From NCBI GenBank assembly GCA_017499595.2, contig CM039002.1, positions 558,001 to 622,000 on the forward strand: DNA of 64,000 nucleotides. The letters are read 5' to 3'. Under the pieces are notes generated by a model. The model made no database searches, was not told the DNA's origin, and worked only from the letters and a program-made list of their open reading frames with translations. Positions 1,608 through 24,763 of this stretch are shown one piece after another (positions within the stretch are counted from its first letter, which is position 1; the number at the start of each line of letters is the position of its first letter). The DNA is from Psilocybe cubensis. Taxonomy: Eukaryota. The position numbers were made by a program, and so were the translations under genes.

Positions 1608-3288
1608 CGTTGTTTGTAGTAGGTTAGGAGAGTAAAAGACGGACAGTTTTCAAGGAAAGGGCCTTGAGCTTTTATAGTGTCGGATTCCTAATGCCAATGT
1701 GAAGTTGCCGTCATTCCATCTAGTTCCATCCCGCCAGACAGTCTCCCGAAAGCGACGGTAAATGACTCCTGACATGAAGTCTTCACCATTATTAGAAGAT
1801 ACAATCCGACAGTGCAGCTCGGACGAGACACAATTGTCGAGATTACGCCTAGTGCTTGAGGCCGCGTCCGTGTATTTTCGTCATAGCGAGGAGCATGATC
1901 CTTTGTTGCTGACCAGAGGGTTGAAGAGCGTTCATATTGGCCAAAAATAACCTTTTCTATTCGGTTTCGACTTGGCCAGCGATAGACTCGGAAGAAATAT
2001 GCCGCGTGTCTACCCCATTTCTTCAAAATTGTGATTAGTTGGCTTCAATCGAACTGAGAAGGGGCAAATGAAGTCACGATAAATTTAGACTTACATTGAC
2101 AGGGTTAACAGGGACATCTTGACAAGGATCTCTGTAGATTTCTCGGCATCTAGACTATGTGTACGCTGAAATTGTTCTGCGTCACTGCGAAATGAATAAT
2201 CGAGTAGCCAAGTTGACGGCCGAAGTTGACCAAAATCTTCCTTGCAGTCTTCAGCACCACTGAAGAGAGATAACCATCATTAATGTCGGCCTTTAAATGG
2301 GAAACTTCCGACTCCGGATGCATGTGGGGATAGGCAAAAGCAGAACAGAAGTTTCTCCACTGGCAAACCGATCTATCAGCTAAACCAATTGCGACTCGTC
2401 TAAGTAGTCATCCTATATCCATCGTAAAAGTATAATAGCCCGAGTCGTTGAAAAAGTTTTAGCAAAGTGGAAGAGGTTATATGAGCGCCAAAAAGTGTCG
2501 TTTTGCTATGGGTACCTGAAAGTTCCCAGTGCCAACCTGGTTGGTGCAAGAGACAAGCAAGAGAGAATGAAACTTGCAGGCTCCACCAAAGCATGATTAT
2601 GTCATTATTAACCGTTCGGCACCATTCGGGCCGTCAAATTTTTGTAAAGCAGTAAACTCAGCAGCCAATTGGCAATTCTAACTTGTGCTTTGAATAGCTC
2701 TCAAGCGATTGGTCGGGTCATTGCTATGGCTAACGGGCGCGTCTGGACTCCGGGACTTGATTTGCCACTGCCGTAGCAATTAACATACTTGGGCGTCGAG
2801 CAGGCGTCGAGACTGTGGTATCAGGTTGCAAGTGTGAATGTGTAGCTCTACATCTGCAGGAAAAAAAAGATTTCAGTAGTGGTACAGTTAGCCAATAGCC
2901 GGGGTAGTCTTGTTGACTGCCCCCCTATTTTATTGCTCCCGTAGCTCCCCGCCCAAGTTCAGTAGACTCGGTAGATATCTTAGTCAAGTATATAGCTTCT
3001 GTAGGTTCATGTAATCTCCATGCCAATCTCAATAGACTGTATAATATTTTTCTATGGATGCTACTGTGACTATATTGCCCACTATATGTCTATCTATCCT
3101 CAATTTAGTATTGAATTACCCAGATACATTCGGTCTATGGAGACAAAATAATCTTGGGAAATCTACTATTGTTATTACTGACCTTTATGGGGGTCCAATG
3201 CATATCACACGGTATTATAACATGATCAAGATTATGTATTCAGGTGGGTCAGCGAGCCAACCAAGTATACAGTAATTTATTTATCATA

Positions 3289-5458
3289 TCATTCTTCCAT
3301 ACCATTGTCATCATCCTCACTATCCGTCTCTCCGGAATGTCCATCAAGCTCCTGACGGACTCTAGCAATATCCTCTACAGTAAGCGTCGGCATTGAAGAC
3401 GGGGGAGCCAAGCCAGCGTGCTGACTGCAATCCAGTTTGTCAGGGACCCAAACAATACTGGTGCAACACACTTACCAGGCATGTTTGTACATTTTCTTTC
3501 GGATCGCGAGCACCACATCCTTATTGATAGCTTCCCATGTCTTGAGTACCTCGCGGAAAGCATTGTGACGTTCGAAAATGAGCTTCGCCCACATATGCGC
3601 TTTGGTGAAGGTGCCACTGCTCCACTCGTCCAAGCAAAAGTCGATCTAAAAAAGGAGTAAATTATATGTTTGCTCCACCAAGATTCACACTCACCACTGT
3701 CAGAACCAAAGCCAGCGTTTCTAATGGGATGGGGTTGAAATGGGCGGCATAAATGACACCCGGCCCAGTAAGTCCGTCAAACCAGATGGCCTCGATGGTT
3801 TCGGTAATGATTTTCCCTCTCGTATGACCGGTTTTGTTATGAGGATTCTACAATAATCAGATTCCGGCAATAATATCATTCACGAGAACGCACCTTGTAG
3901 TGAAAAGCCGCATCCGTTTTCAGTAAAGTGTAGAGGTCACGATTGTGGGCGATTGTCGAAGACTTCGTCCCCTTCTTGAAGCCAAAGAGGTTGACGACCA
4001 AGCTACGTATGATTGTCAATGCATGCCCTCGGATACGGGACGGGCGTCTTCGTAGCTGCAAAAAGAAAGCATCAGGCGACAGGAATAACAAGGGTAAGGA
4101 TGCACACTTGCGATGGAGCTAATGCCTTCGGTGATAGCATAGTTTTCCTGGCTGGCCAGACAGGCATTCCGCCAGCACCGTTCGGCCCATTGGAAGCGCA
4201 ACTCGGATGAGGGCAAAGAATTCTGGGTGCTCACCAAGACTTCGAATTCGTGTGCGGCCCTGTTGATTAATGCGCGCGCAACGTCTTCGTAGTCACTCGC
4301 CTTCAGCCTGCGTCCAGGAATTAGAACCACCCCCTCTTTGAGCTGGGGTATCATAGGCTTTTCGCCCGTCGCTCCATGCTCACGTTCGGGATGTTCTTCA
4401 TCACTGTCGTCCTGGACATCGTTACGCGAGCGTTTTTGTGCTCCGGTGGCATCGTCATCGTCGTCGCGAGACCTCTTGCCAGGTTTGGTTGGGCCATGAA
4501 TGGTTGGCGTGTCATGGACGTCTTCCATGGGGTGTGCAGAGTGGGCTTGGACTGGCGGTAATGCCTTGTATGCATGGGGTGACAGGCGCTTCGATAACTT
4601 GCCGGCGTGGGCAGCTTGAGGTTTGACGCGGATAAGCGGAGGGCGGTTTTCTTTCTCGGTGTGGGTGTAGGGCACCACTTTGACCTTTAGCAGCAATTTG
4701 GTGCATATTAGTAGACATTGAGCAGTGAGGACCCTGACTTACTGAGCTAGAGAATGAATTTGGATTATCAAACATCTCTTCTTCGCTTTCATTTTCGGCG
4801 TCGTCATCTTGCTGCGATCCTCCTAGAAACAAATGGTGGTAATACATTTATAACATAGTGGTGCGGGACTTACCATTATGTTTCTGGGCGGCCATGGCCT
4901 TTTTGAGTGCTTTGTATTGGTTTTGTATGCGGCTTAGCTCTTTTTCCAACTGGTCTTTTTCTGGGGCGGTATGAGCAGCACTGAAAATAATGGCATGGGT
5001 GTTGTAACGAACCTAACTCCGATTTTTTCATGGTAGGTTTGGATTGCCGTTTGGTGCGCTTTGCAGGTCCTTGGCTTTTTGCAGGCCCAGTGGGGGCATG
5101 TTCTTCATCGGAGGCGGCAATAGAGACTATATTAATGTATGTGACATATGTTTGTTGCAAAATTGTGTGGTTCGTACCTAGTTTTTTTTTCGGGCGTCCT
5201 CGCCCACGCTTGGGGGGTGGCACAGGTACGGGGGTAGATGCTCGGGCGTCTTCCTGGTCGACCTCGTCCTCTGACATGGTGGCCGCGTCGGATTCTTTAG
5301 GGCCTGATGTTGTCAATGTACTCGCTCGGTGGGTGAAAAAAGTTACCAGAGTCGGATGTATGGGCCTCTTGATCCTCTGGGTCGTGGTATTCATCCGTGT
5401 CGGGCTCTCCCAAATTTTCTGCTTCTGCAGTGGAGACCTGGGCTGCTCGAGGGGCCAT
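3289..5458 (-). CDS. DUF6532-like domain protein with N-terminal acidic/disordered region and AT-hook (transposon accessory gene), multi-exon
   Basis: AT-hook PKRGRGRPKKK (~5180-5212). C-terminal exons read IIRSLVVNLFGF...LLKTDAAFHYK|...IEAIWFDGLTGPGVIYAAHFNPIPLETLALVLTV|IDFCLDEWSSG, which I recognise as the DUF6532 pattern. GT-AG introns link the ORF fragments. Start may be 5458 or 5548. Confidence 0.75.
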
Positions 5459-5626
5459 TGAAGGAGGTGGGAGGGAAGGAGCAAGCAACCTACAAGTTTT
5501 AAAATCCGACAAAAAAATAACGACCTTGTTATTTGTGCCAGGCGCCATTGACCTGGGTGTTAAACATTGCCACCCCCTATTCTATAGGTGAGTGTCTCGT
5601 TGGTTCCTCTGGTTCAATCAGTCACT

Positions 5627-8600
5627 ATGTTTCTCCATCACCCCAGAATAATTCGATGTATGTACTGCACCCACGCCCCCTTTGCATCGGAGGATAGCTT
5701 GTATCGGCACATCTGCAACTCAAAGGGTTGCAGAGCAAAGATGGAAAAACTCTCGAGTGGCGACAGACTGCCCCCACCATCTGCGGATCTCTCTGTGTCA
5801 GAAGATGAGGTCTGGCCCGATCCGCCAGTGACTCCTTGGGCTCCCATGCATACTCAACCTCTACCTGAGAGTTCCGAGTCAGCAACCGAAAACAGCGAAC
5901 CCTGGGGCAGTGCACAGCAACCAGATGTGGAGGACAGCGGGTGCTCATATGTAGAGACATTTCCTGGCCCTACAGGCACTCCGGTCGGGAGAGCACCAAC
6001 GGACTATCAGCAACATGCCGAGTGGCAAAAGCAAAACCAACTGGAATCATGGTATCCATTCGCATCTCAGGATGAGTGGGAATTGGGCCGCTGGTTAATA
6101 AGATCCGGTTGCAGCACTGAAAGGATTGACGAGTTCTTGAGATTGAATATGGTGAGTCTCGTCGCAGATGTTGTGAGCCCTGTGCGAGCTGATTCCTTGC
6201 AGATGCGTAGCCGTATGAGGCCTGCATTCAAAAACACCAGAGCGTTGCACAAACGCGTCGATCTGCTGCCCGAGTCTTCACCTTGGTTTTTCAAGCCCCT
6301 CAAAGTCACAGGAAACCTCAAGGACCACCACAACAAGTATTTGGAGGAGGACTTGGAGTTGTGGTATCGCAACCCTGTGGATTGTATAGCAGAATTACTC
6401 CAAAATCCCGCCCTGGACGGACGGTTAGGTTTTGAACCACGACGCGTGTATCGCTACCCCAATTCGATGGATCGTGAATACAACGAGATGTGGAGTTGCG
6501 ACTGGTGGTGGGAAAGACAGGTATGTTGGTCAATAATGATGTTCATCGGGGCAGCGATTGACTTACCAAAAAACATAGAAGTTACTGCCTGAGGGTGCCA
6601 CCGTGTGCCCTGTCATTATATCGTCTGATAAGACCCATTTGACGAACTTCTCGGGTGACAAACAGGCATGGCTGGTATACATAAGTGTCGGTAATATACC
6701 GAAAGAGCTCCGTCGCAGTCCCTCGGCCAAGGCAATGGTTCTGCTAGGCTATCTCCCAGTCGCTAAATTCGCATGTTTTGATGAGGCCCGCCAGGCTGTG
6801 GAAAAGTATCAATTATTCCATCGCTGTATGCGTATCATCATGGAACCTCTGATTAAAGCTGGGCAAGAAGGAGTCCAATTGCAGTGCGCAGACGGTTATG
6901 TGCGCCTCTGTTTCCTGATCCTCGCTGCCTATATTGCAGATTACCCGGAGCAATGTCTAGTCACTTGCATCCGAGAGAACTCGTGCCCGCGTTGTCTTGT
7001 TCTGCCGAAGCAAAGAGGCGAATACATGGACAGACCCCCATTACGCACGCCCGACCATACTTTGGAGGTCCTCGACGACACCGCCCAGGGCAACAAGCAC
7101 CCGGACTTCAAGAAATATAACTTGAGATTGGTGGATCCGTTCTGGCGTGATTTGCCTTTCTGTGATATCTTCGAGGCCATTATGCCAGACCTTTTGCATC
7201 AGTTGCACAAAGGTATTTTCAAAGATCACATCTGTAATTGGGCGGGTCAGGCTTTGGAAATCGCAACAGGGCCAGGAGAAATGGACGAACGCTTTAAAGC
7301 CATGAGTTTGCACCCAGATGTACGGCATTTTGACGCTGGCATCACGCACACAACCCAATGGACGGGGAAAGAGCACAAGGCAATGGAAAAGGTTTTGTTG
7401 GGTATCCTAGAAGGCGCCGTCAATGATCGTGTCATCCTCTGCGCCCGGGCATTGCTTGATTTCATATATTACGCCTCCTTCGAGACCCACAGCGACAAGT
7501 CTTTGCGTATGTTAGACAAGTCTTGGCTATGTTTCCACCAAAACAAGAACATATTCGTAGAGCTGGAGCTCCGCAAGCACTTCAATATCAGCAAACTACA
7601 TAATATTCGGCATTATGTGGATGCGATTCGTTCATTTGGCACCTTGGATGGATTCAACACCGAGAACACGGAACGTCTGCACATTGATTTGGCCAAGGTC
7701 GCATATCGGGCTTCTAACAAGCAGAACTACGTCCCACAAATGATAGGGTGGCTGCGCCGACGGGAGAACATACACAAGAACACGATTTACTTGCACTGGA
7801 GGACGCAATGGACGGAGGAGCATAATGAGGAGTCAGACACCGAGGATGAGGATGACGCAGGCGAGGATGAGGAGGATGATGACGTGGACCAGGTAGAGGT
7901 GGGTGAGGTTGCGGGAGCCAAGGAGGTAGTTCATCGTGTGGCCTTGCGAGCACCACTGCCCGCGGTGCCCCTGCGCACGCTTGTGCATGAGTATGGGGCA
8001 GAGCAACTGTTGTCGGAACTCAATTACTATCTGGAGGATGTAGGTTCGCAGTACAAGGCCTCAATTTCTAGCACGTTCGCCGTGTATCCGCGCGCCAGGC
8101 TGACCTTGCCTGTCATACCTGAGGTCGGGACGGAACCAGTCAGAGACGCGCTGTCGGCGACCCCCGCCGTGCCCGCGCGACATACCCCACAGGGAACCAA
8201 GCGAGCTGTACCACCCAAATTCACCACGGCACTTTTCAAAACAGCATCTACCGATGTCAACAAAGGCCCGTTAGATGGTCTAGCTGTTGGTCAGATCCGT
8301 TTAATCTTCGATAGCCCACGCACTACCTCAGACACGACCAAGACCCCTTTGCTGTATGTCCGTTGGTTCAAGCCCCTCCGTTTGCCGCAGACAGAAGCAG
8401 GGCTCTGCGAAACATCATGGTCCTCGCGACACGGAGCTACGCGGGCCACTGTAGTGCCTTTGACAGACGTCGTACGAAGCTGCCATCTCATGCCTCTGTT
8501 TGGGCGCCATATAGCCAAGGAGTTGGGGTGGCAGGCAATTGACGTACTACACCAAGCACCCAAGGTTGCTCTGAATCCTTATCTTCGTTTGTATGACTTC

Positions 8601-8687
8601 TATTGGTTTCGGTATAAGTTATCTATGCATGAAGAGGAGGCGTCGCCGGATCGAAAGGCGACTTTTGGTAAGAAACGCAAGCGTTGA
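5627..8687 (+). CDS. Plavaka transposase (CACTA/EnSpm-related RNase H-fold DDE), with N-terminal zinc finger; about two internal introns
   Basis: C-x2-C...H-x5-C finger (CMYC...RHICNSKGC); WYPFASQDEWELGRWL; LWYRNPVDCIAELLQNP; EMWSCDWWWERQ; IISSDKTHLTNFSGDKQAW; AYIADYPEQCLV; CPRC; PDLLHQLHKGIFKDH; GTLDGFNTENTERLHIDLAK. Introns at about 6151-6202 and 6521-6578. No disabling stops seen. The 5' end is uncertain (GTGAGT donor at 5588). Confidence 0.93.
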
Positions 8688-9501: not shown

Positions 9502-9777
9502 TGGGAGGAGCAGAAAGAGGAGTGCGGCGCCCAGACACCGGCTTGTAGCCCTCTTATATCGTCTGAGTTATGGCTCAAACATTTGCCACAAAATTGCCAA
9601 TGGCGATGGCGAAGGTGGCGATCACTTTGTTGGAGTTTACTGAAAATTTTTTGGGTTTCGTTCGATCCCATGCTCGATTTATGACACGCAGGGGAAAACT
9701 TTAAGATTCCAATAGACGTGACTCTACTCGAAAAGATGTGTAGGTACAAAGGAATGTATGAGGTTCAACCCATGTCC

Positions 9778-10350
9778 TCAGACCCTCCGGGACCTCTTCT
9801 TGTTAAGCGCCTTTCTCAGCAGCGCCACCTCTTTTTGTAACAACATGATCTTCTGGTCGTCAGCAACGGCCTTGATCTTCATGAAGCGGACTTCTTTGTT
9901 GAGAGCGATGTTGAGTTTGTGATCAGAGCGGAATTGTTCCAATCGTTCGTGAAGTAGGTCCTGAATTTCGGCTTCGCGATTTGTCAAATTCAAGCTCACA
10001 TGGTGGTGGTGCAGTGACAACTCTTCCAGGCGTTGCAGGTGTTCCCGAATGACCGCGATCGAATGGTGAATGGCGGCCGGTGTCGCGGACGATCTCGCCG
10101 TCACCGCTGGCTCAACCTGGCCTGGAAACACATCATCTGGACCGATGTCTACTATGCTAGCTGGAGAAGTTTCGGCAGCAATGTCTCTGCAAGATAAAAA
10201 GTTGAGCACAGTGGACATGGCTGCAACCAGGGCGAAATACTTACGACAGTCTGAGGGCCCCGCGTCGGCGTGTAGCATTCGGGGTGGGTGTTGAAGGGGT
10301 CGCCGAGGAGGGTCGATACCTCTGGAGTGATGGCGTAGCCCGACGGACAT
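9778..10350 (-). CDS. Hypothetical transposon cargo protein with C-terminal coiled coil and basic tail
   Basis: Part of the 245-aa ORF 9778-10515, with a probable in-frame intron (GTAAGT ~10244 to TTGCAG ~10187). Ends IMLLQKEVALLRKALNKKRSRRV (possible NLS). Confidence 0.5.
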   Translation of the reverse strand: MSVGLRHHSRGIDPPRRPLQHPPRMLHADAGPSDCRKYFALVAAMSTVLNFLSCRDIAAETSPASIVDIGPDDVFPGQVEPAVTARSSATPAAIHHSIAVIREHLQRLEELSLHHHHVSLNLTNREAEIQDLLHERLEQFRSDHKLNIALNKEVRFMKIKAVADDQKIMLLQKEVALLRKALNKKRSRRV

Positions 10351-10576
10351 TAGGAGAATGAATCGTGTTAGCTTTGGAGCGGTGAGGCGTTGGGGTGCGA
10401 GACATGATGGCAGACCTGATAGAAATTGCAGAGGCCATGCCGCTTTTATATATGCCACGAACATGTCAAATTTCCGGGTCATAGTTATGTCCAAATGACC
10501 TCCGCCTGTTGACATTTATATGGCAACACAATCCATACGGCAGACAGACATGTTTTCGTAGTAGAGATTGTACATC

Positions 10577-11500
10577 TTACTGGCTGACGGACTGTTTAAT
10601 GGCATCTACAACCTTGATAAATTCATCCCGCTGCCGAGTCCACTCCAATCGTTCTGCCTGGAGGGTGTCACGCTCCTGGCATACCGCCGCTAGTGTCTTC
10701 TCCAGTGAATCTTTTTGATCGACAGACTTAGCCAGTCGCTCTCGCACACGACCCCAATCCATCTTTTCGTCTTGCCAACGACTGAAAACATCGTTGATGG
10801 AGGACTTGGTGGCGCTGACCATTCTCTCTAAAGCCGAGACCGAGGCCTCCATTTCTTTGACGGAATTCTGCACAGACTGTATGCGGCGTTCCAGTTGGTC
10901 CTCTCGATCCATAACGAAGCGGCCTGCAGGTATACGCCACAGGATCTCCTCATGGAGAGCCAGTGCCTCAGCCGTGACAGGCCCTCCTCCGCGCGCTGGC
11001 TCTGCACAAAATCAGTACAATAGACCCAGTTAAATACGCATTACTCACTATCGCTATGGTTGTCCATGCTGTCCTCTGTGACGGAACCGCCTTCCTCAAC
11101 TACTTGCGCGGCGTTGTGAGCGTCATTGTGGTCCTCAACAACCTGACTTTCTTCATAGTGAACTGCGGTAGCGACCTGAGTCAGTAATCACTTCGCAGGG
11201 GCCCACCAATGGACACTCACCAGACACATACTGGCTGCATTCGTCGTCGGCTAACTGCGTCTCCGTTGCTTCAAACATACCGGCAGGTGAGGCTGGATGA
11301 GGGGACGTAGACGCGCGAGATATAAACACGCGAGGAATGGGGGTCTGAGGCGTAGCGTGGCGCTGAAACGAGACTCGCTTGTCCTTGGTGGGGGATTTGG
11401 GTTTGCGGCGGGCTCTGCCTCCCGGGGATGGAGAGCTGGTGGCGTCGGAGATTGACACACGAGGGGAGGACGTGTGACTCGCCTTGTTCGTACGAGCCAT
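10577..11500 (-). CDS. Hypothetical transposon cargo protein, three exons, long C-terminal coiled coil
   Basis: Exon 1 MARTNKASHTSSP...ECSQYVS ends at a GTGAGT donor (~11220). Exon 2 reads HYEESQVVEDHND. Exon 3 includes the 111-aa heptad-rich ORF (LERRIQSVQNSVKEMEASVSALERMV). Confidence 0.55.
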
Positions 11501-11675
11501 GGAGAAGACTAGGGCGCAAAAACATACACAGTCGGCTCATGCCTTTAAGGAATAAAATTGCATGATCGGTCGGCGGGGGCGTCGCGATCGGGCGGCATGA
11601 CGTAGGCGAGGGTAGAACACGGTCAGCACCCCCATAACAGGGGCCCCGATCGCGTATCGATAAGGTGTAAGGGCA

Positions 11676-12179
11676 GCACACCAGAGAGCTCTGGTGTGCG
11701 GGGTATAAGTCGTTGTCCAGTCTTATCAGAGACCTCTGATCACGGCACGAGGGCTGGTGCTAATCGAAGTAGTTTTCCATTGATTTGGCGAAGAAGGTGG
11801 GGTCGATACGGAGTGTGCGGATACAATGTCGGGGGCGATGAGAACAGACCAGAGACCTCTGGTGGGCTATCACAGTGTGTTACCCCGGTTACATGATTGG
11901 GAGCAAAAGCGCGAGTGCAAGACACGCCAGAGAGCTCTGGTGGGTCTGACACTATACCGCCCAGGGGGAGCACGACCAGAGACCTCTGGTAAGCCCCGCA
12001 GACGTCTGGGCGCCGCCATGCAGCTTGTCAGGTTGCGCCTCTTGTCGATAACGAGCTGGGCTAGGCGGTAGGAAACCAGAGAACTCTGGTTGTCCTAAAT
12101 CACCTGGGATGGTGCAGCGAACGAGCCAGAGATCTCTGACTTGCCCGCGACCCCCGCACCCAAGACCAGAGAACTCTGG
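11676..12179. repeat. Array of eight 14-bp palindromes (C/T)CAGAG-AN-CTCTG(G/A) separated by unique spacers
   Basis: Copies start at 11681, 11726, 11849, 11927, 11976, 12076, 12126 and 12166. Centres are AG, AC, AC, AG, AC, AA, AT, AA. Confidence 0.9.
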
Positions 12180-12296
12180 AGGCGGGAGGGGTGAGGTTGC
12201 TATCAAGATGGTTGCAATCCACATCACCCCTTGTCGTGTCACGTGGCTCTTTCAAACTCCGCTCAGGTACGTTTTGATTCCTAAGTCCCTCTTCCC

Positions 12297-12653
12297 GTAC
12301 CTCCCGGTCGCCCTACAGAAGGTCTTCTGTAATCGCGACCCCGACAGGTACACCGTCTCTTCAGAAGGTCTTCTGAACAGACGCTGTAAATAGGGAAACC
12401 GTCGTTGGCCCCTAGAGTCCCACTGCCCCCTACCTCCTGGTCGCCCTACAGAAGGTCTTCTGTAATCGCGACCTCCACGGGTACACCGTCTCTTACTGCC
12501 CCCTACCTCCTGGTCGCCCTACAGAAGGTCTTCTGTAATCGCGACCTCCACGGGTACACCGTCTCTTCAGAAGGTCTTCTGAACAGACGCTGTAAATAGG
12601 GAAACCGTCGCTGGACGGAGGGTGGTGTGTCGCTCTACAGAAGATCTTCTGTA
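12297..12653. repeat. Array of six 18-bp palindromes T(A/T)CAGAAG-(G/A)T-CTTCTG(T/A)A, within 73-bp tandem and ~107-bp direct duplications
   Basis: Copies start at 12314, 12360, 12447, 12520, 12566 and 12636. Exact tandem unit at 12422-12494 and 12495-12567. Confidence 0.9.
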
Positions 12654-12823
12654 AAAGTGACCCTCTCTTCACCCTGGAACTCTCTTCACATCATATTCAC
12701 ATTCACAACATATTCTGCATAGCTGGTGTACAAAGCTGGGTTGCGTCTATTGCTCTTCGTACGTCGTATTACTGGGGTAACGTATGCTGGGACAACAACT
12801 GATGTCTATCACGCAGATACACA

Positions 12824-15800
12824 ATGCCTCTCACTTCCCAGATTGACTGGTCGAAGGGTACCGTCTTCATCCACGACGGCACACTTATTTGTTCGCCCAA
12901 CTCCAAACGATTCGTCATACTACCTTGTGGGCCACCTTCACTGAAGCATTTGGAAGCCGCCAAAGATGAAAACAAGGCCCACCTGCCTTACCCCGGTTCC
13001 ACACATTTTGACCGCAAACTCGATATCGACCTCGCCTTATACCGGCAACCCGTGCAGTGGGAAGACAGTTATGGCTGGCTGGCCTTCGTACCATTGTCAC
13101 CATCATTCATATCCTTGCCATTCAAGCCATTGTCTTGGACCCCAGAACCGAGGCGGTGGAGGACAGGTCAAACCACATACCAATGGGAAGTAGAGTCTCA
13201 TGAAAAGGGCGAATGGTATAGATGCGAATCTCAGCTCGTTTACCTCTGCGAGAAGCTACGGTTATGGTATCGCATACCGGGTACCCCGCCTCCTGTGCCG
13301 TCTCGGTTTGGTTATGACAGACCGCACCGAAGTAAAGAAATTGCCGAGAAGATGGTTGAGGTGTCGCGCAATGCTTTCGTGTTGTGGATGGGTTTCCTCT
13401 CCTACCTGATTGCGCAATCTCGTCGTCCGGAGCACGCCGCCCACCTACGTGATGACGGTAAGAAACCCGTCCCTGCGTGGCATACCAAAATTCTCGAGGA
13501 GCAGGCCGCTGAGGCTGCAGCAGCAGTGGCTGCTTCGGCCCAAACAGGATGGGATCCTATCACCCCACCTCCGCCCTTGATCACGGAGCCATGGTTGGAT
13601 GGTCTCCGCCAGTCAGTGGTCTGGAACTTCACTCCACAAACGCCGCGCGCTGGAATTGCCTACGATTGGACCACATCGCACCGCACGCGACCTCCGATTG
13701 AGTTTTTTTTGGACAATGCCATCGCAGTGTACTATCCTTGGGGAGTAGTGGAGGAAGACACTATGAAAACACACAAACTGGTGCGGCAGGACCTGAGACC
13801 TCCGTCCGAAATGCTGGCCACGGTGCTAGACGAATTTCTCGGGTCGACGGATGTGCCACTGGCCACTCTGTTCATGCGCAAGTATTACGAGCAACCCGAC
13901 AGCACTGTTTCGCCCAGCATTAAACTGTTAGGGCAGAGCCACTCGCAATCGTTTGTGTTTCAGCACATCATGGACCGGTATCACAACGAACAGACTGCAT
14001 TCGAGAGAGCATGGGACAATCCAGACAACCTGGACATTGACGACATTCTGCGGCAGAGATCTTCCCAAGTAAATGCGAAGGCCCGACGGATGGAGGAGAA
14101 CTGGAATGATTCCTTTACGGAAGGTCATGAAATGCAAGGACGTATTTCTGGAGTTGTGGATGTCACAGGAGACGTTCGTGGCATACAAAATACCGAGTCA
14201 TTCACTGATTGGGAGCCGTACTGGACACGACGACTGGCTCAATGGCGCAAGGCGTTGGAGAATGAGGACCCCGCTGCTCGTCGCTTGCGGTTGGCTCGCG
14301 AGAAACAAAAGCCTACCCGACGCACCAAAATGTATCAGTGGAAAATGGTGCGCCACGCCAACGGCACAGTCACATACCTCAGGCAACTGGTATCGCCCAA
14401 CATGGCTGCCAAGTTGTACCACAAGTACCGTCCACGTCAAGTTGTGTACAATTCCATTGACAACGTCTGGGATCTTTGCCGGTACTTCAAACCTCCAATT
14501 GAGCTGGCTCAAGGAGGCTCAGACAATAGTGACTTGAGTTCAGGAAGTTCTGACGAGTCAGACCCTGGCCCCATTCCCTTGGTGTCCAAACCCAATCAGG
14601 TGGTTAACACGCCAGAGCCCCAGGAACCGCGCGTGCAACAGTTTGACCCTAGCAGTCGCCCGCCAACTCCTGCTGCGGAACATTTCAGTGGGTATCCAGG
14701 ATCGCCGGATATGCAGGTAGATGCAGTCCATTCCCATGTCACCGACACAGTCCCACCCCCAGACGTGGAACCTGCCCTCACTCTCCTGGACGCCAGGCCC
14801 CCACCGGCCCCCAAGCCAGATGCACGCACAGGCTGGATGGTGCCCGCTCGGAACCTGGTACAATCCTTGCGACTGGGTTATGGGTATACAGGCCCAGGTT
14901 CTGGGTTCTCAGTGCGTGCTTCCACCACGACGAAGGATGAACGCAAGGAATGGCTTGAGATTGTGGAAAGCCTGGGTTTCCTAAGCGCCAATGCCGACGA
15001 CCACCTTGAAGAAGCCGACAAGCAGACTGTGCAGGTCTTCTATCAACATTACGTCGTGTCCGACAGTGAAGACATGTTGGCTGACCTATGTGACCTGCAC
15101 CCCAACAACAAGTACGGGCTACACACCTTCTTGGGATTACGAGAGGTACAGCGCCCCCACAAGAGCATGTTCGTGTTCTCTGAACCACGCTCACAGTGGT
15201 CAGACTGGAAACTTGGTGTGGAAACGGCCGAGGTCGCGTTATACGTATGTCGGTTGATGCAGATGTATCCCACTCTGGACATCGACGACATTGGGTACAA
15301 ATTGCTAAGCAAGGGCGTGCCCTGTCGCACCTTCGTCAAGATCCCAGCATCGCCCCGGAGTAAAACCGTCGTTGACAAGTTTATTCCGACCTCATTCCGT
15401 CCCGCGGGGTATACATTTGTGGTGGAAGACTTCCTAGAGTACCGACATCAATGCGAGACTCTTTTGAGCATGCCACAGGGTAGAGCCGCTGTTTTAAAGG
15501 GGGGTATAATCAGTCGCATTGCCAGTGAATACCTGGGTTTGTTATCTACTTTGGAAGGCCCATCCCCTGAAATCATCACTAACAAGCAAGGTTTCATGAT
15601 ACTTTTGGGGCCTAACGAGTGCTGGGCTGATGACGAACTCACGGAAAAAGAGTTAGCGGTGTTGTGTGGCACATACGGAATGTATACGGGTAAGCTGACA
15701 TCACAACTTGCTGGTTCACAACTCACTCACTTGTATACAGCTCGTGCCAATCAGACCACTATTGTCTCATGGTTCCCACCGGCGGACCTCTGGGCCCCTG

Positions 15801-16030
15801 GGTCCTTGAGAAATGGTCGTCAGCTTATTGAGTGGACACCAGACAATGAAAAGTGGTATCAAGATCGCGTCCGAGATATTCTTGCTGGTCAGGCTCAGCC
15901 ACACACAAAGGTACAGTGGAGGACATGGTATCGCGGTATACCACAGGCGCGCCGCCTGAAGGAGCAGTCATCTCATCGTAGTGCAGACTTTGTGGACCGC
16001 CATTTGCCCATCACCCAAGGCAAACTGTAG
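12824..16030 (+). CDS. Uncharacterised ~1050-aa transposon-borne protein (Trp-rich N- and C-terminal domains, disordered linker)
   Basis: 1068-codon ORF, probably with one in-frame ~51-nt intron (GTAAGC ~15690 to TACAG ~15740). C-terminal block GRAAVLKGGIISRIA...DDELTEKELAVLCGTY...SWFPP...W...EWTPDNEKWYQDR...I...G.AQP...W resembles an agaricomycete hypothetical family that I cannot name. Confidence 0.8.
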   Translation: MPLTSQIDWSKGTVFIHDGTLICSPNSKRFVILPCGPPSLKHLEAAKDENKAHLPYPGSTHFDRKLDIDLALYRQPVQWEDSYGWLAFVPLSPSFISLPFKPLSWTPEPRRWRTGQTTYQWEVESHEKGEWYRCESQLVYLCEKLRLWYRIPGTPPPVPSRFGYDRPHRSKEIAEKMVEVSRNAFVLWMGFLSYLIAQSRRPEHAAHLRDDGKKPVPAWHTKILEEQAAEAAAAVAASAQTGWDPITPPPPLITEPWLDGLRQSVVWNFTPQTPRAGIAYDWTTSHRTRPPIEFFLDNAIAVYYPWGVVEEDTMKTHKLVRQDLRPPSEMLATVLDEFLGSTDVPLATLFMRKYYEQPDSTVSPSIKLLGQSHSQSFVFQHIMDRYHNEQTAFERAWDNPDNLDIDDILRQRSSQVNAKARRMEENWNDSFTEGHEMQGRISGVVDVTGDVRGIQNTESFTDWEPYWTRRLAQWRKALENEDPAARRLRLAREKQKPTRRTKMYQWKMVRHANGTVTYLRQLVSPNMAAKLYHKYRPRQVVYNSIDNVWDLCRYFKPPIELAQGGSDNSDLSSGSSDESDPGPIPLVSKPNQVVNTPEPQEPRVQQFDPSSRPPTPAAEHFSGYPGSPDMQVDAVHSHVTDTVPPPDVEPALTLLDARPPPAPKPDARTGWMVPARNLVQSLRLGYGYTGPGSGFSVRASTTTKDERKEWLEIVESLGFLSANADDHLEEADKQTVQVFYQHYVVSDSEDMLADLCDLHPNNKYGLHTFLGLREVQRPHKSMFVFSEPRSQWSDWKLGVETAEVALYVCRLMQMYPTLDIDDIGYKLLSKGVPCRTFVKIPASPRSKTVVDKFIPTSFRPAGYTFVVEDFLEYRHQCETLLSMPQGRAAVLKGGIISRIASEYLGLLSTLEGPSPEIITNKQGFMILLGPNECWADDELTEKELAVLCGTYGMYTGKLTSQLAGSQLTHLYTARANQTTIVSWFPPADLWAPGSLRNGRQLIEWTPDNEKWYQDRVRDILAGQAQPHTKVQWRTWYRGIPQARRLKEQSSHRSADFVDRHLPITQGKL

Positions 16031-17119: not shown

Positions 17120-17439
17120 GGATGAAACAAATAATGAAAGCCAGGGCCTTGGTGAGGTAGTGGATGAGCTTGCCGTGCAAGCGAAGGTCAGAGGTGATAG
17201 TGTTGTGCATTGAAGAGATGTGGTGGTGGTGATGATGGGTATTGCAGAACAAGATGTGAGTGCGAGAAATTGGGGAAAAAATTCAGTTTTTATTTCAAGG
17301 AGCTATAGACAAACGTTGGCAAACGATATGGCAACACAGGTATAAGTTAGCACCACTAAACTACTTGTTCTAGGTGGTATATTAATGTGCCAAATGAACA
17401 TGAACAGAGGTATGGTGGGGCAGCAGGCTCAAGCCAAAA

Positions 17440-17731
17440 AAATGATGCCATGGGACGCGTCTAGACGCGCCCTCCAACGCGCCCTTCAACCCATACAGAA
17501 GGCCCAAAAGGCCCCCTTTAAAACCCCCCTCGTACTCCGTCGCTGCCGCCGCCGCCGTCGTCGTCGTCGTCGCGGGTGTACTTGTCCCACCCATCACACC
17601 CTCCAACTCGCCTCCCACCCCAAACGAAAGCCCAAACGCCCCCACCCCACTGCCCCACCCCTCCTGTTCCGTCGTCACCCGCCCTCGCCCACTCCGCTGC
17701 CGTCGTTGGCACCACCGTCGTCGTTGGCACC

Positions 17732-17765
<34 letters not shown>

Positions 17766-18054
17766 CGGGTGCCCTCGTTCCACCCATCGCACCCCCTCCA
17801 ATTCGCCCTGCAACCCATAACGAAGGGCCACAAGGGCCCCAACCTATACCCCCCCCTCCTACTCCGTCGCCGACGTCGCTGTCGTCGTAGTCGTCTTCGT
17901 CGGCGGCGGCGCCGTCGCCGCGGCTGCCCTCGTCACCCATCCCACACCCTCAAACCGCCCTGCAATCCATAACGAAGGGCCACAAGGGCCCCAACCAACC
18001 CTCCCAACCCCCCTTCTACTCCGTGGTCGCCGTCGCCGCTGCCGTCGTTGGCAC

Positions 18055-18087
<33 letters not shown>

Positions 18088-18226
18088 GGGTGCCCTCGTC
18101 ACCCATCCCACACCCTCAAACCGCCCTGCAACCCATAACGAAGGGCCACAAGGGCCCCAACCTATACTCCCCCCTCCTACTCCGTCGCCGACGTCGCTGT
18201 CGTCGTAGTCGTCGTCGGCGGCGGCG

Positions 18227-18259
<33 letters not shown>

Positions 18260-18600
18260 TGGGCGGCTGCCCCTCGTCCCACCCGTTCTCATCGCCCTCC
18301 ATCACATAGAACCCATGCCAAGGGGCCCCAAGGCCCCCAGGCAATGCCCCCCCCTTCCTGCTCCGTCGTCGTCGTCGTCGCTGTCGTGGTCGCCGGCGTC
18401 GTCCTCGTCCTCGTCGCCTCCCACCCCTCCCAGACCCTCCAAACCGTAACGAACGCCCAATAGGGCCCCCCAATACCCCCTCCTAGTCCGTCGCCGCTGT
18501 TGTCGTCGTCGTCGTTGGCGTTGTCACCGTCGTCGTACGTCGTTGTCGTAGTGAGACCTCGTCGGTCGTCGGCGTCATCGTTGACAACGATGACGACGAT
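17440..18600. repeat. Subterminal GC/CpG-rich minisatellite: ~130-190-bp units of a C-rich block plus (GTC)n/(GCC)n tracts
   Basis: Near-identical core GCCCTGCAA(C/T)CCATAACGAAGGGCCACAAGGGCCCCAACC at ~17805, ~17957 and ~18123. Degenerate copies at ~17481, ~17610, ~18310 and ~18440. The cores alternate with GTC triplet runs. Confidence 0.85.
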
Positions 18601-18670
18601 GTTAATTATAAAAAAAAGATTATGTAACGTATGGACGTATCATGACTTACCGCATCTCTTCCTATATCAA

Positions 18671-18742
18671 AGTCTCATGGTCTAGTGGTTAAGCGCTGCG
18701 TCTTTTTAGCTGAAGTCGGTGGTTCGAACCTCGACCAGGCCA
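18671..18742 (+). pseudogene. tRNA-derived sequence retaining Pol III A-box and B-box
   Basis: A-box TGGTCTAGTGG (18678-18688) and B-box GGTTCGAACC (18721-18730) at tRNA spacing, ~72 nt overall. Acceptor, anticodon and T stems pair poorly, and there is an internal T5 at 18703-18707. Confidence 0.65.
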
Positions 18743-19016: not shown

Positions 19017-20297
19017 CATCGCGAAAACCGCCAAAAACATGCATTGCCTTTGTACCCTTTTAAGGTAAGTCAGGAATTAGCCGACCTTACCAAGCCAATC
19101 AAAACATTTGTTGACCTTGGATTGCCTTTGAAAGGTTAGTGAATTATTAACTGATCTTTGCTTGGGATTTTAATATCTGTTCTTATTGTAAGTCATAGCA
19201 AAATATTTCAGATGTATGTATAATCAGAGAATTATAAATTCTACCTTATTTTCCAATATAATTATATGCTTTGCCTTATATTGTGTTGTAAAGCTTTAGA
19301 AAAATATTTCCTTGTTAATGAAATCTTACCTGAAAATTGAAAGGCAAACCAATATCTAGATTAGTAGTGTAGGTTATTCATTGATTTTTAGTTATTATAT
19401 TGATTGTTCAATATTTATAACCACGGGGCGCTCCTCACTGCTCAGAGCAAGCTCAGAGACAAAGTTCCGTGAGAGATCACATGACATAGAGTCAGACATT
19501 GGGGCCACGGAAATTGGGGACGGGGACTCTAAAAGACCGTCGCACAACTCAAAACAACTCTGTCAAGGCTTTTCACTTCCCCATCTTCAAGAAATTAAAT
19601 GGTAAGAATTTCTTCCTAACTTGTGAGATTCCTGCCGTATAACCTCTAGCAAGTATACAGTTCCAACAGTACTAGCACACATGTGGGACTGGGTTTGGCT
19701 GGTCAGATAGTAAGTGCACATCATATTCTGTACCATCTATTCCACAATGTACTCATTTTCAACACGAAGGTGACCGACTATCTGATTCTCGCACTCGGTC
19801 TCGTTCTTGCACTTGGTCTCATTCTCGCACTCGGTCTCGTTCTCGCACTCGCACTCGCACTCGGTCTCGTTCTCGCACTCGCACTCGCACTCGGTCTCAT
19901 TCTCGCTTTTAGCGTAGTTTTTTTGCTCTGCTGTTTTGACTTCTACAGTAGCTTTTTTTACTACACGTGTATTTGTATTCAGTTGGTTAATAAGCAATTT
20001 GTACATTTCTGGATACCGGCGGCCAAGCCAGAAAGAGTGAAATAAGATTCATTAATGAGCGCACATCTTTGCAAAGTTACCCAGCTTTGCAAGGGCAATT
20101 AAAGATTTGCCCTGCCTTCAAAGGTCAACTAAGAATGACCAAAAGTTACAAAGGATTCGCAATGTTGCTAATTATAACGTGTCCTTACTTGTAAGTGCTT
20201 ACAAGTAAGGCCATTTATAATCTTTGTGTCCTTAGTGCCATTTGTTACCTTTATTAGCAATGTATTATCTGGCAAACTTATGGCGGTTTTCGCGATG
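19017..20297. mobile_element. Non-autonomous TIR DNA transposon (1,281 bp), CATC...GATG ends
   Basis: Perfect 17-bp TIR CATCGCGAAAACCGCCA (19017-19033) / TGGCGGTTTTCGCGATG (20281-20297). TT flanks both sides (19015-16 and 20298-99). AT-rich interior with no transposase ORF. Confidence 0.9.
19783..19906. repeat. Hexamer-based tandem repeat (CTCGCA/CTCGGT/CTCGTT/CTCATT) inside the non-autonomous element
   Basis: Directly visible: ttctcgcactcggtctcgttctcgcactcgcactcgcactcggtctc... Confidence 0.85.
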
Positions 20298-21569: not shown

Positions 21570-23203
21570 TGTGTAGAGAGCGTCACTCCGGGGTAGGTTA
21601 CAAGAGGCAAATTTCAGATGGAAAGGAATTGAATAAACCATCTCTTTTTAAGTGAATTTGGTTGCTAACATACAACTGTCATATCAATAACGTAGAGACA
21701 ATATTGAGCGGTTTGTCACAGAATTACCGTCATATATATCAATTCGGTCAGAGGCGGTTTGGAAAAGTCAAGGAGAACAACTACCATTGGTCGAAAAATG
21801 ATCTACTTTTTTGCTTCTTCATCCTTGCTTGACCCCTTCGTCATCTTTCCTACGCACATGGTTTCAGGAACTCACCAACATGGGAATTTTCTTATAAAGC
21901 TGTAGTGCCAGACGACGTTGAATGCAGGTCTAGTTTGCCCATGCTCACTAATCAGGACAAGGAGTACTTGCAAAGGTGTTGGCAAGTTGTCAATTTTGAC
22001 ATCTGCTGACTGTGTTGTATTACGTGTTGTTAAATGTACCCAAGAAAGGCAAGAGTGTAGAAATACGTAGCGCTTGTGGCACTTGTGCTATATTTTGATA
22101 CCAGAGAAAAATTCTGAAGCTTATTCTCGGTCGTGTTGTATGAGTAAAATACGATCAGTAGTCCATGTAACATTGTGAGTTATTCTACGACGTTAATTGA
22201 ATGCAGTGTCGGACTAATCTCGGACCCAGTTGAATCGGAGATATTGGCGGCACAACGGCTTGGAGAACGGCACCACTACCATACGAGCCACCTTCTCACG
22301 CTCAACAACACCTCTTGCCCACAAACTTTGTAGTATTTTACCTACCCATCGATTTTGCATTGTCAGGATTGCATTCAACCGCTCGCCCAAGAGTTATATC
22401 AAGCCACCAACACGCCAACGCCCAAAAGTATTGATTAAATGAACATGCCGATGACGGTTGACGCAGCATCCAACAATTCGCTTCTTAGTTCGCTTTATCG
22501 GTCAAGGTGCCTATATTTTTTTCTGCAGTTCTGACCATTTCTCTACCACCTCCATTCGCACCTCTGCAGGGTGCTTTATCAAAAGCAAATCAAGATTTTA
22601 CAGATGTCTATGGCTTTCCCGAACTGGGGCTCAAGAGCCTTTGGGTTGTTATAAATGGGAGGTGGTTAAATTTGAAACAAGGTAATACGTATCATTCTGT
22701 ATGTACCCCATTTTGATATTCTGTTATCTGCAAGGCCAACGTTGACTGTTCGTACCCATCTCCTCTTATTTAGTCATTTCTCTCATTTATGAACCACCGA
22801 TTATGCGTGCTTCTATACGGTCTCAGCTAGTCTCGACTCGGGCCCTAATTATCGAACGGCATTACCAAAACCCGCCAAAGCCAAAAGGCAACTAAAGCCG
22901 GATATTGTGCATCAGTAGCTGGTGAATCTCTAAATTTTCTCGGTCTCCGACCCTCCTTTGTTGATGATAAGTCATGCTATATGCATGTAGCCGCCGAAAA
23001 ACAAGCCTGTCAAGTCCGTCGACATCCATTGGCAGTTTCTCGAGTTTGACTGGCCCATGCCTGGCCCGAATTAACTGTTGATGATAGGATTTTATGTCCG
23101 GAGCGGAGGCTATTTCAGACGTGGAAAGCTTTCTTTATATACGAGCGAGCAAGGTATCTTCCACCTTCCGTGTCCTTTCCACCTCTCCACCCGCTTTGAA
23201 AAC

Positions 23204-24763
23204 ATGTACGATACTCATGATCTGAGACATGTCGAAAATATGCTCGACAGCCTCCCTATCACGGACGAAAACGTAAATTTAACTCTCAACATACCGTCTC
23301 AGGAAGATATTGTGCGGACGCGATGTGTTTCTCTCGACGTTCAAAATCAATCCCAATCTTCGCTCCCGCTCATCCATCGAATGCCAGACGAAATGCTCGG
23401 AGAAATATTTTTGGCTTGTCTCTCACCACACTGCACTAGGGAAGCACTAAAGGACCAAGATCGCCAATTTCCCATCCTACCTATGTTTGTATGTCGTCGT
23501 TGGAGAAATGTTGCTGTATCAACGCCAAGATTATGGACACAACTTGACATCGATATCCCGCGAACAAAGCGCGTATCGCTTCGTCGTCAGCAAATTCAGG
23601 ATCAAATCGCTAGGTCTGGAGTGTGCCCGCTTGATGTGTCTATTTGGTTCCCGGAAGTATGTGGCCGTCAATGGGAGGAAACGGACGGTCCGCGTTACGA
23701 CAAAGCCAACCAGCTTACGGGGCCTCTGTTCTCTGAACAGCATCGGTGGAGGAGTGTTCGGTTAGAGGGTGCTTCGCAGATTACAGAGATACTCACTCAA
23801 CTAAACCCTTCGAAGTTGACGGCGCTGGAAGAAGTCGAATTGAATTTAGACGGAAAATTTTATTCGTCACTTCCAGCAGACTTCCTTCAGGCTCCAAAAT
23901 TAAAGCATCTTGGGCTTCGACGACGTCTTACAGTCCCCACCATTTTGTCTACGCCATGGCATAGACTGATACATCTCTCGTTTACAGTTTGGGAGATGCC
24001 CGACTCATCTCCTACACAAACGCTCGCTGAGATGCTCGCTTTATGTCAAAATCTCACAAGTTGTTTCATCCGTTTATATGGATGGGTTTACCGAACCCCA
24101 GACACCACCGAATCAGACCATTATCCTTTGATTCGACTCCCGAACCTCTCAACGCTCAAAATATATGAAGGCAAACCCTCTAGCATCCATACTTCATGGG
24201 ACTTACCTCGATTACGCGACGTTGAATTCCATGTCACCGAAGTGATTCCCCCACACGACCAAAGCGCATCCCTCCGCGCGATCATCGAGCGTACAGAAGG
24301 TACCATCCAGAAATTGACGACTCAGATCGACATGCACAAGCAAGGTGATCTTATTGGATGCCTTGATCGCTGCACGGATCTTCGGTCACTGGTGCTAGAG
24401 CTTCCTCCGCCAATCCATGTTGGCAGTCAGGCGGGTTGGGGGTATGCCTTAGCATACCCCACTGAGCCGGAGGGACTACCGCATGACGATCTGTTGGAGT
24501 GCTTGATGCCTGGCCACGGACCAGGAAATACAACGAGGTGCCCTAAGCTGGAGAGCTTTCGGTGTGAACAAAAGGGGGTGTTTTCAGATAATATGCTTTT
24601 TGATTTTATTTGTTCTAGATGGTGTACGGAGCGCCAGGATGTGTCCAAACTCAAACACATCGTTGTCAATTTTGGGAACGATTGGAAAGAGACCAAGATG
24701 CTCGAGAGCCTTGAAAAACTCTCGGCATTTATTGAGGACGGACTCGTCGTAGAATTTCTGTAG
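23204..24763 (+). CDS. F-box-like domain protein with C-terminal LRR/RNI-like repeats
   Basis: PLIHRMPDEMLGEIFLAC...FVCRRWRNVAVSTPRLWTQLDI followed by LxxLxL repeats (APKLKHLGL, LPNLSTLKI, CPKLESF). Single long ORF; ATG at 23204 taken as the start. Confidence 0.88.
   Translation: MYDTHDLRHVENMLDSLPITDENVNLTLNIPSQEDIVRTRCVSLDVQNQSQSSLPLIHRMPDEMLGEIFLACLSPHCTREALKDQDRQFPILPMFVCRRWRNVAVSTPRLWTQLDIDIPRTKRVSLRRQQIQDQIARSGVCPLDVSIWFPEVCGRQWEETDGPRYDKANQLTGPLFSEQHRWRSVRLEGASQITEILTQLNPSKLTALEEVELNLDGKFYSSLPADFLQAPKLKHLGLRRRLTVPTILSTPWHRLIHLSFTVWEMPDSSPTQTLAEMLALCQNLTSCFIRLYGWVYRTPDTTESDHYPLIRLPNLSTLKIYEGKPSSIHTSWDLPRLRDVEFHVTEVIPPHDQSASLRAIIERTEGTIQKLTTQIDMHKQGDLIGCLDRCTDLRSLVLELPPPIHVGSQAGWGYALAYPTEPEGLPHDDLLECLMPGHGPGNTTRCPKLESFRCEQKGVFSDNMLFDFICSRWCTERQDVSKLKHIVVNFGNDWKETKMLESLEKLSAFIEDGLVVEFL

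Follow-up and report, generated by a model that had tools for sequence, protein, structure and literature searches.

Our analysis concerns a gene at positions 12824-16030 of a 64,000-nucleotide stretch of the Psilocybe cubensis genome (GenBank assembly GCA_017499595.2, contig CM039002.1, positions 558,001 to 622,000 of the forward strand; hereafter the window), together with 23 related loci (L001-L023) from one metagenome scan. The gene encodes a large protein, P0001, and lies downstream of a Plavaka-type transposase gene and directly behind two arrays of palindromic motifs. We tentatively read P0001 as a protein that serves Plavaka elements in an accessory role by acting on such arrays. The features of the window that bear on this reading are listed below, where ORF stands for open reading frame, nt for nucleotides, pI for isoelectric point and pLDDT for the predicted local distance difference test score of the structure model.

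5588-8687, + strand: Plavaka (CACTA-related) transposase gene, recognised by Pfam PF18759, ending 4.1 kb upstream of the P0001 ATG
11681-12179, unstranded: array of the dyad CCAGAGnnCTCTGG, eight copies (six perfect, one with one mismatch, one with two), from repeat listing and motif count
12316-12651, unstranded: array of the dyad CAGAAG(G/A)TCTTCTG, six perfect copies, the last ending 173 nt before the P0001 ATG
12824-16030, + strand: P0001 gene, with exon 1 at 12824-15689, the intron at 15690-15740 and exon 2 at 15741-16030, from the ORF and its homologues
15690-15740, + strand: P0001 intron, 51 nt, in frame, GTAAGC...ACAG, from the sequence and a family-conserved position
12824-14533, + strand: N-terminal lobe, residues 1-570, from alignment coverage and the model
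14189-14533, + strand: basic, Arg-rich helix plus small beta-sheet module, residues 456-570, pI 10.0, net charge +10
14534-14827, + strand: acidic, Pro/Ser-rich disordered linker, residues 571-668, pLDDT 30-42
14828-16027, + strand: C-terminal alpha/beta domain, residues 669-1068, where conservation in the family is highest

The stop-to-stop frame of the gene runs from 12803 to 16030 on the + strand (1075 codons, standard code). Its first ATG, at 12824, is the start of P0001 and a TAG at 16028-16030 is the stop, which gives 1068 residues unspliced and 1051 amino acids (aa) after splicing. The 17 residues encoded by the intron are missing from close homologues, with which the spliced junction, ...MYT/ARANQTTIVSWFPP, aligns. 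Moreover, the signature T-[G/C/R]-[K/M], the expected read-through of G/GTAAG or G/GTATG, appears at the same site in 12 of 13 rows (the window and 12 loci), and an explicit frame-restoring GT..AG was located by script in five of the 13. Since the junction fits the homologues and the splice position is kept in the family, we take P0001 to be a real spliced eukaryotic gene. The preliminary description of this DNA had pictured a long intact ORF with at most one intron, which is what we find, and all ten of the motifs that it quoted are present in the translation (QPVQWEDSYGWLAFVP, SRNAFVLWMGFLSYLIA, RAGIAYDW, IAVYYPWG, WEPYWTRR, QVVYNSIDNVWDLC, GRAAVLKGGIISRIA, DDELT, SWFPP and EWTPDNEKWY). A second copy of the gene was not found within the 64-kb window.

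P0001 belongs to a large family. A HMMER search of 1.84 billion cluster representatives returned 1378 proteins at an expectation value (E) ≤ 1e-3, 614 at E ≤ 1e-10 and 85 at E ≤ 1e-30, where each count is of clusters at 50% identity. Most of the best 150 matches cover five blocks of P0001 (80-230, 255-335, 470-575, 680-960 and 960-1060), so that the whole architecture is conserved. An organism was named for 16 of the 24 proteins that were looked up, and all 16 come from Psilocybe, Hebeloma, Coprinopsis, Panaeolus, Leucocoprinus or Agrocybe; four of the named species were confirmed as Agaricales, and the others we take to be gilled mushrooms of the same order. P. cubensis itself has at least six further paralogues, with 30-46% identity to P0001.

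Members are annotated as 'hypothetical protein', and no source gives a function for the family itself; two functional names found among them trace to fused neighbouring sequence. The family has already been noticed as a sequence cluster, since a Pfam entry exists for it and P0001, P0002 and P0006 carry the precomputed annotation PF28437.1. Our local Pfam searches gave no family for the whole of P0001 at E ≤ 0.01, none for four pieces of it at E ≤ 10, and nothing on 26 of 28 long homologues, the exceptions being WD40 in P0125 and Cauli_VI in P0133. Both of these proteins are apparent gene-model fusions, the first with WD40 repeats after the family domain and the second carrying a Cauli_VI / RNase H1 N-terminal motif. 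P0010, annotated as 'Enhancer of polycomb-like protein 1' and with a long extension at the C-terminal end, appears to be a fusion as well.

The ratio of nonsynonymous to synonymous substitution rates (dN/dS, Nei-Gojobori) lies between 0.13 and 0.26 for the seven divergent pairs with computable dS, although dS itself shows partial saturation. In an eighth divergent pair dS was too high to be corrected, and three near-identical pairs had too few changes to be informative. Among the metagenome copies, long intact ORFs of 790-990 codons predominate. Four others (L005, L015, L017 and L018) are broken by frameshifts or in-frame stops, and of L023 only a fragment remains. With its size, its paralogues, this range of dN/dS and its broken copies, the family has the profile of a mobile-element gene that is under selection yet dispensable. 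The earlier view of P0001 as a maintained protein agrees with the intact ORF, the conserved intron position and the purifying selection between divergent copies. Separately, the one DNA-like run that contains the gene (X1) matches the ORF at about 98% identity; its contigs are interrupted again and again within the arrays and the gene's 5' part, and summed contig depth reaches 100-260 at window positions 11661-12948 and 13754-14236, compared with 47-55 over the remainder. This hints at related copies elsewhere in that genome, depth not being equal to copy number.

In the N-terminal lobe the conserved blocks lie at about 80-230, 255-335 and 470-575, and the conserved residues of the lobe are many Trp and Pro residues together with R29, R182, R275, R470, R489, R492 and R520, the last four of which, with W506 and W549, are kept within the basic module at residues 456-570. 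The linker is unalignable and varies in length among homologues. Near-invariant positions of the C-terminal domain are D757, R810, T836, R859, D869, R887, G893, G894, R898, D936, D937, E943 and G949. Among about 100 aligned sequences the conserved fractions are 0.98 for D757, 0.98 for D869, 0.95 for D936, 0.97 for D937 and 0.92 for E943, and 0.97, 0.93, 0.90, 0.96 and 0.95 for R810, R859, R887, R898 and T836, respectively; the GG pair at 893/894 is conserved at ≥90%. Nowhere in the 117-sequence alignment does a His reach 65% conservation, and only one Cys is conserved. The tail (residues 973-1068) is basic, and apart from it and residues 456-570 the protein is acidic. In keeping with the preliminary description, which had recognised no TET/JBP, helicase, protease or RuvC signature, we find neither a Pfam match nor a conserved His, nor any match to a well-characterised host family.

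An AlphaFold2 model of the whole protein, built on the 117-sequence alignment, has a mean pLDDT of 81.9 and a predicted template modelling score (pTM) of 0.82. Disorder is limited to residues 432-454, the intron-encoded loop and the linker 571-668, where pLDDT falls below 50 and a disordered linker had indeed been expected. Modelled alone, the C-terminal 400 residues reach a pLDDT of 91.0 and a pTM of 0.91. The preliminary description had suggested modelling and a fold search as a check, and the outcome is a confident model with no match to solved or viral structures. For the whole model, Foldseek against the PDB gives no fold match (best E 0.25), and the best VIA-wide row has Z 4.9 and a root-mean-square deviation of 3.3 over 103 residues, with generic helix bundles only, matched to residues 96-269. 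For the C-terminal model the best VIA-wide row has Z 3.8 and a root-mean-square deviation of 4.2 over 56 residues, and the best Foldseek E is 2.0. The viral structure library gives no match (best E 0.39). By sequence, P0001 alone finds two chance cytochrome c rows in the PDB (E 0.31 and 0.37), the 117-sequence profile finds 0 matches among PDB sequences at E ≤ 10, and the ESM Atlas has no usable match for P0001 or P0012. According to the search tool's own note, a Z of 7-8 is typical even of models that lack a clear match; with a best Z of 4.9 the P0001 model is thus unusually isolated. These results suggest a confidently predicted fold without a solved relative, a statement that is weakest for the N-terminal lobe because the searches covered the whole model and the C-terminal model.

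The transposase gene upstream of P0001 carries PF18759 in two halves, on the ORFs 5588-6592 (E 6.6e-25) and 6579-8687 (E 5e-90), which a likely short intron near 6521-6568 joins to about 1000 codons in total. Linkage to Plavaka transposases, which had been suggested for this gene, is found at four independent places. Besides the window these are a P. cubensis paralogue, JR316_0007793 (P0010), which adjoins JR316_0007792 (P0156, Plavaka plus DUF6830); L001, where the member at 3632-6578 is followed 0.8 kb downstream on the same strand by a Plavaka ORF at 7357-8619; and L016, where a Plavaka match at 2628-4058 lies on the opposite strand, 4.4 kb upstream of the member. The four linked members sit in separate clades of a FastTree phylogeny with local support only and a midpoint root. 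In addition, the UniRef model P0157 (2095 aa) fuses the P. cubensis pair P0010 and P0156, in the order member then transposase. On the earlier statement that the transposon carries P0001, what the analysis shows is adjacency: no element ends were found, and six of eight independent long loci have no Plavaka match in their flank. Some homologues do lie without a transposase nearby, but their flanks are short, so that this is not evidence of absence.

The second kind of association is with the motif arrays. Palindrome arrays next to the gene had been noted before, and two dyad arrays are indeed present. CCAGAGNNCTCTGG, with up to two mismatches allowed, has 10 matches in the window, eight of them at 11681-12179 (shuffled sequences: mean 2.17, maximum 7), and CAGAAGNNCTTCTG has nine, of which six, all perfect, lie at 12316-12651 (mean 3.19, maximum 8). 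The copies of CAGAAG(G/A)TCTTCTG are set within 73-115-nt direct repeats (12280-12614). For both dyads, CCAGAGnnCTCTGG and CAGAAGGTCTTCTG, the counts exceed those of 100 out of 100 shuffles, and neither clusters elsewhere in the 64 kb. The suggested link between the family and upstream arrays recurs in unrelated metagenome loci, where the reiterated motifs are mostly 14-29-nt palindromes upstream of the member and the motif differs between clades:

L001: 25-nt dyad centred on GGATCATCC, seven matches in total, four upstream and three between gene and transposase (shuffled, 0)
L002: dyads centred on GGATGATCC, four matches (shuffled, 0.23)
L005: GGATGATCC dyads, three matches, only one of them upstream (shuffled, 0.23); a weak case
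L011: the 11-mer TGGTTGCCCCA in both orientations, 11 matches (shuffled, 0.14)
L018: the 11-mer TGGTTGCCCCA, six matches (shuffled, 0.05)
L015: the 11-mer TGGTTGCCCCA, two matches (shuffled, 0.07)
L016: 23-nt dyad, 13 matches, seven upstream, two just downstream and four about 7 kb further (shuffled, 0)
L021: 17-nt GC-rich dyad, six matches (shuffled, 0)
L022: the same 17-nt dyad as in L021, eight matches (shuffled, 0.02)
L019: dyad on the 13-nt half-site AAATGTGGCGATC, nine matches, about 2 kb upstream (shuffled, 0.28)

The two arrays of L001 are direct copies of each other, one ahead of the member and one ahead of the transposase, as a shared element-specific regulator would predict. Arrays also occur at loci without a detectable transposase (L002, L021 and L011), and are thus tied to the member gene more than to the transposase.

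What might a protein of this kind do? We propose that an Agaricales-wide family travels with Plavaka-type DNA transposons as a second, non-transposase gene, and that its P0001-type products act on the reiterated, lineage-specific arrays that adjoin their own genes. The arrays would probably be bound by a dimer, since most of the motifs are two-fold symmetric, and the contacts would be made by the two basic segments, residues 456-570 and 973-1068. Binding would either control transcription of the element or help to assemble its DNA for the transposase, in a role like that of maize TnpA but without homology to it. This reading is favoured because a transposase, a large second protein and lineage-specific motifs together mirror the two-protein logic of CACTA elements; in its favour we also count the two basic segments themselves (pI 10.0 and 10.5) in an otherwise acidic protein, the first of them with conserved arginines. 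On balance we consider it a tentative account whose chance of being right is somewhat short of even.

A number of observations pull the other way. P0001 has no match to pfam03004 or pfam03017, so that homology to TnpA or TNP1 is rejected, and Pfam, Foldseek against the PDB and VIA-wide recognised in it no DNA-binding fold or domain that would bear out the nucleic-acid-binding role which the preliminary description thought plausible. Judging from conservation, the near-invariant acidic cluster of D757, D869, D936, D937 and E943 points to catalysis instead. Inverted-repeat scans of the window, L001 and L016, with a targeted search in L016, brought to light no element termini near the family gene, no terminal inverted repeats and no target-site duplications, and membership of the same element rests on adjacency only. 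A Plavaka match is present in only two (L001 and L016) of the eight independent metagenome loci with ≥3 kb of flank, and the four linked cases disagree in how member and transposase are ordered and oriented. Three loci (L002, L005 and L011) share a different neighbour instead of Plavaka, a gene with no Pfam match and no homologue by word-indexed search that is unrelated to the P0001 profile and to the coiled-coil ORFs of the window:

L002:4844-7381 (+), L005:3279-6354 (-) and L011:1056-3932 (-): recurrent second gene family of about 900 codons, upstream of the member, at three loci in two clades

The arrays, too, supply points on this side. In the window the dyads stand only upstream of P0001, with none near the transposase and none downstream; L005, as listed, is weak; and in L013 no array was seen in what is only 176 nt of upstream sequence. 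The density of generic palindromes (arms of 7+7 nt, ≤1 mismatch) is raised only in the window (20 sites versus a shuffled mean of 8.5) and not at any of the nine other loci tested, so that the array evidence rests on motifs picked by eye from repeat listings. Finally, related copies inherit their motifs by descent, and a motif that follows the clade is therefore no proof of co-evolution with the protein.

The acidic cluster can also be accommodated by going further. P0001 could be an obligatory, two-lobed Plavaka component of new fold, at once a dimeric reader of the dyads and the bearer of its own metal-dependent active site formed by D757, D869, D936, D937 and E943. We regard this combination as rather unlikely; if it were correct, TnpA-like targeting would be joined in one protein to catalysis of a step in transposition or anti-silencing, an activity without precedent among the known accessory proteins of transposons.

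An explanation by catalysis without array reading is that P0001 is a passenger, its C-terminal domain being a new metal-dependent enzyme that works on DNA or chromatin and helps the element to escape silencing or to process DNA, with the arrays as ordinary promoter or transposase-binding elements. It is compatible with the accessory-protein reading, and we judge it unlikely. That the C-terminal domain is the most conserved in the family and is modelled at high confidence, with its acidic, Arg, T836 and GG residues conserved at ≥90% in the roughly 100 aligned sequences, speaks in its favour; a weak Tet_JBP-like ORF (E 5.6e-4, under the Pfam cut-off) lies between family copies in L019; and the capture of TET/JBP genes by Plavaka and other transposons is described in PMC12730594. 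However, no enzyme fold is matched (VIA-wide Z 3.8 and Foldseek E 2.0 for the C-terminal model, 0 profile matches among PDB sequences), there is no conserved His and only one conserved Cys, and conserved Asp residues can be structural.

We also doubt, to much the same degree, that this is simply an Agaricales-specific host family residing in transposon-rich regions, with no functional tie to transposons and with arrays that are cis-regulatory repeats for host factors. Such a family could well have old paralogues in P. cubensis (30-46% identity to P0001), purifying selection on its copies, a conserved intron, members annotated as hypothetical proteins in all sources, and six of eight long loci without a Plavaka match in the flank. 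It does less well with four independent adjacencies to one transposase family across separate clades, with a gene model (P0157) that fuses a member to a transposase, with motif arrays that shift between clades, which conserved host factors would not easily tolerate, with copies broken in several loci, and with a diversity as high as 1378 clusters at 50% identity.

It seems quite improbable that the family protein is itself a new transposase or recombinase, with the arrays as the ends of a compact autonomous element, about 4 kb long, that frequently inserts close to Plavaka copies. In favour of this, the same dyad lies on both sides of the ORF in L001 (four upstream, three downstream) and L016 (seven upstream, two downstream), a transposase is missing from the vicinity of several loci, the DNA of paralogous loci ceases to be similar about 30-110 nt past the stop (L015/L017 at 92%, L011/L012 at 83%), and a D..D..DD..E set is conserved. 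Against it, the flanking arrays of L001 are direct rather than inverted, and the downstream one immediately precedes the transposase gene; downstream of P0001 in the window there is no array; the Pfam and structure searches showed neither the signature nor the fold of an RNase H-like, tyrosine-recombinase, serine-recombinase or HUH protein; we observed no target-site duplications and no multi-copy insertions that were nearly identical; and the arrangement of member then transposase recurs in two distant lineages.

The remaining features of the window and of the related loci are recorded here for completeness. Between the transposase and the dyad arrays lies the following group, which is unrelated to the neighbour genes of the related loci:

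9778-11536, - strand: three consecutive coiled-coil-like ORFs, with weak coiled-coil Pfam rows only

Just downstream of the P0001 gene, at 17346-18640, lie direct repeats of high GC content and triplet periodicity, whose units measure about 150-320 nt; they are open in several frames on both strands as low-complexity ORFs rich in Pro, Ser, Arg, Thr and Asp. Periodic repeats of 12 and 18 nt (CTCGCACTCGGTCTCGTT-like) occupy 19770-19924, inside an ORF rich in Leu, Ala and Gly. Other long ORFs of the window lie at 29924-31732 (+), 41656-43665 (-), 23075-24763 (+) and 35793-36464 (-). Two of these, with 602 and 669 codons, have no Pfam match, and the 669-codon ORF is in a stretch of high GC content (0.574). 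Of the other two, one gives a weak row that resembles F-box (E 5.4e-4, under the cut-off) and one an Ala_racemase_N match (E 2.8e-9). Among the related loci, L019 (1-11845) holds two family copies on one strand, at 1-1860 and 9623-11845, with the Tet_JBP-like ORF mentioned above at 3553-4113 and a G-alpha fragment at 5722-6042 between them; a G-alpha fragment is found upstream in L021 and L022 as well. In L016 an ORF at 15594-15923 that matches DUF6698 (PF20414, E 4.6e-11) lies between the member and the further 23-nt dyads at 18135-18690.

How does P0001 compare with known systems? Plavaka elements are widespread in mushroom genomes and have so far been described by their transposase and a few captured TET/JBP genes. 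With the latter, described by Kojima 2025 (PMC12730594), P0001 shares the character of an accessory gene that recurs beside Agaricomycetes transposases and is plausibly tied to escape from silencing. An identity with TET/JBP (PF12851) was considered and rejected: there is no Pfam match, no match to a double-stranded beta-helix and no conserved His, and hence no HxD...H iron site. A comparison with the DDE or RNase H-like fold, including PF18759, likewise gave no Pfam match to P0001 and no RNase H-like structure among the fold-search rows, although a missing match does not exclude the fold; in the DSSP string of the model, D757, D869, D936/D937 and E943 fall off the secondary-structure elements expected of an RNase H-like fold, which would place one Asp on beta1, one after beta4 and a Glu on the helix that follows. 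Full-text searching of the literature, which did not extend to Iyer et al. 2014 or to the figures and complete consensus sequences in Kojima 2025, turned up no description of a P0001-type protein, of its link with Plavaka or of its arrays. Recognising the family would also improve annotation, since its members go throughout by the name 'hypothetical protein' and gene models sometimes merge them with their neighbours.

The nearest functional parallel is offered by the CACTA elements, with which Plavaka is placed in the CMCT clade (PMC12730594). According to PMC2613891, CACTA elements need, besides a transposase, a DNA-binding protein of low conservation whose targets are reiterated subterminal motifs that form palindromes and differ between lineages. 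With the maize En/Spm protein TnpA and the TNP1-type proteins, as with P0001, a second, non-transposase protein is encoded beside a CACTA/CMCT transposase, in association with reiterated, often palindromic motifs that vary with the lineage. The differences are that P0001 has 1051 aa and is far larger than TnpA, a protein of 67 kDa, that P0001 shows strong conservation, in contrast to the poor conservation described for TnpA-like proteins, and that the arrays of the P0001 family are seen upstream of genes whereas CACTA motifs are subterminal. Since Pfam excludes homology, the proposal can only be that P0001 works like TnpA, not that it is TnpA. If P0001 does turn out to be an array-reading factor, it would account for the regulation or assembly of these elements, and its family, with a protein and a DNA motif matched in each lineage, would offer a natural series of pairs in which to follow the evolution of binding specificity.

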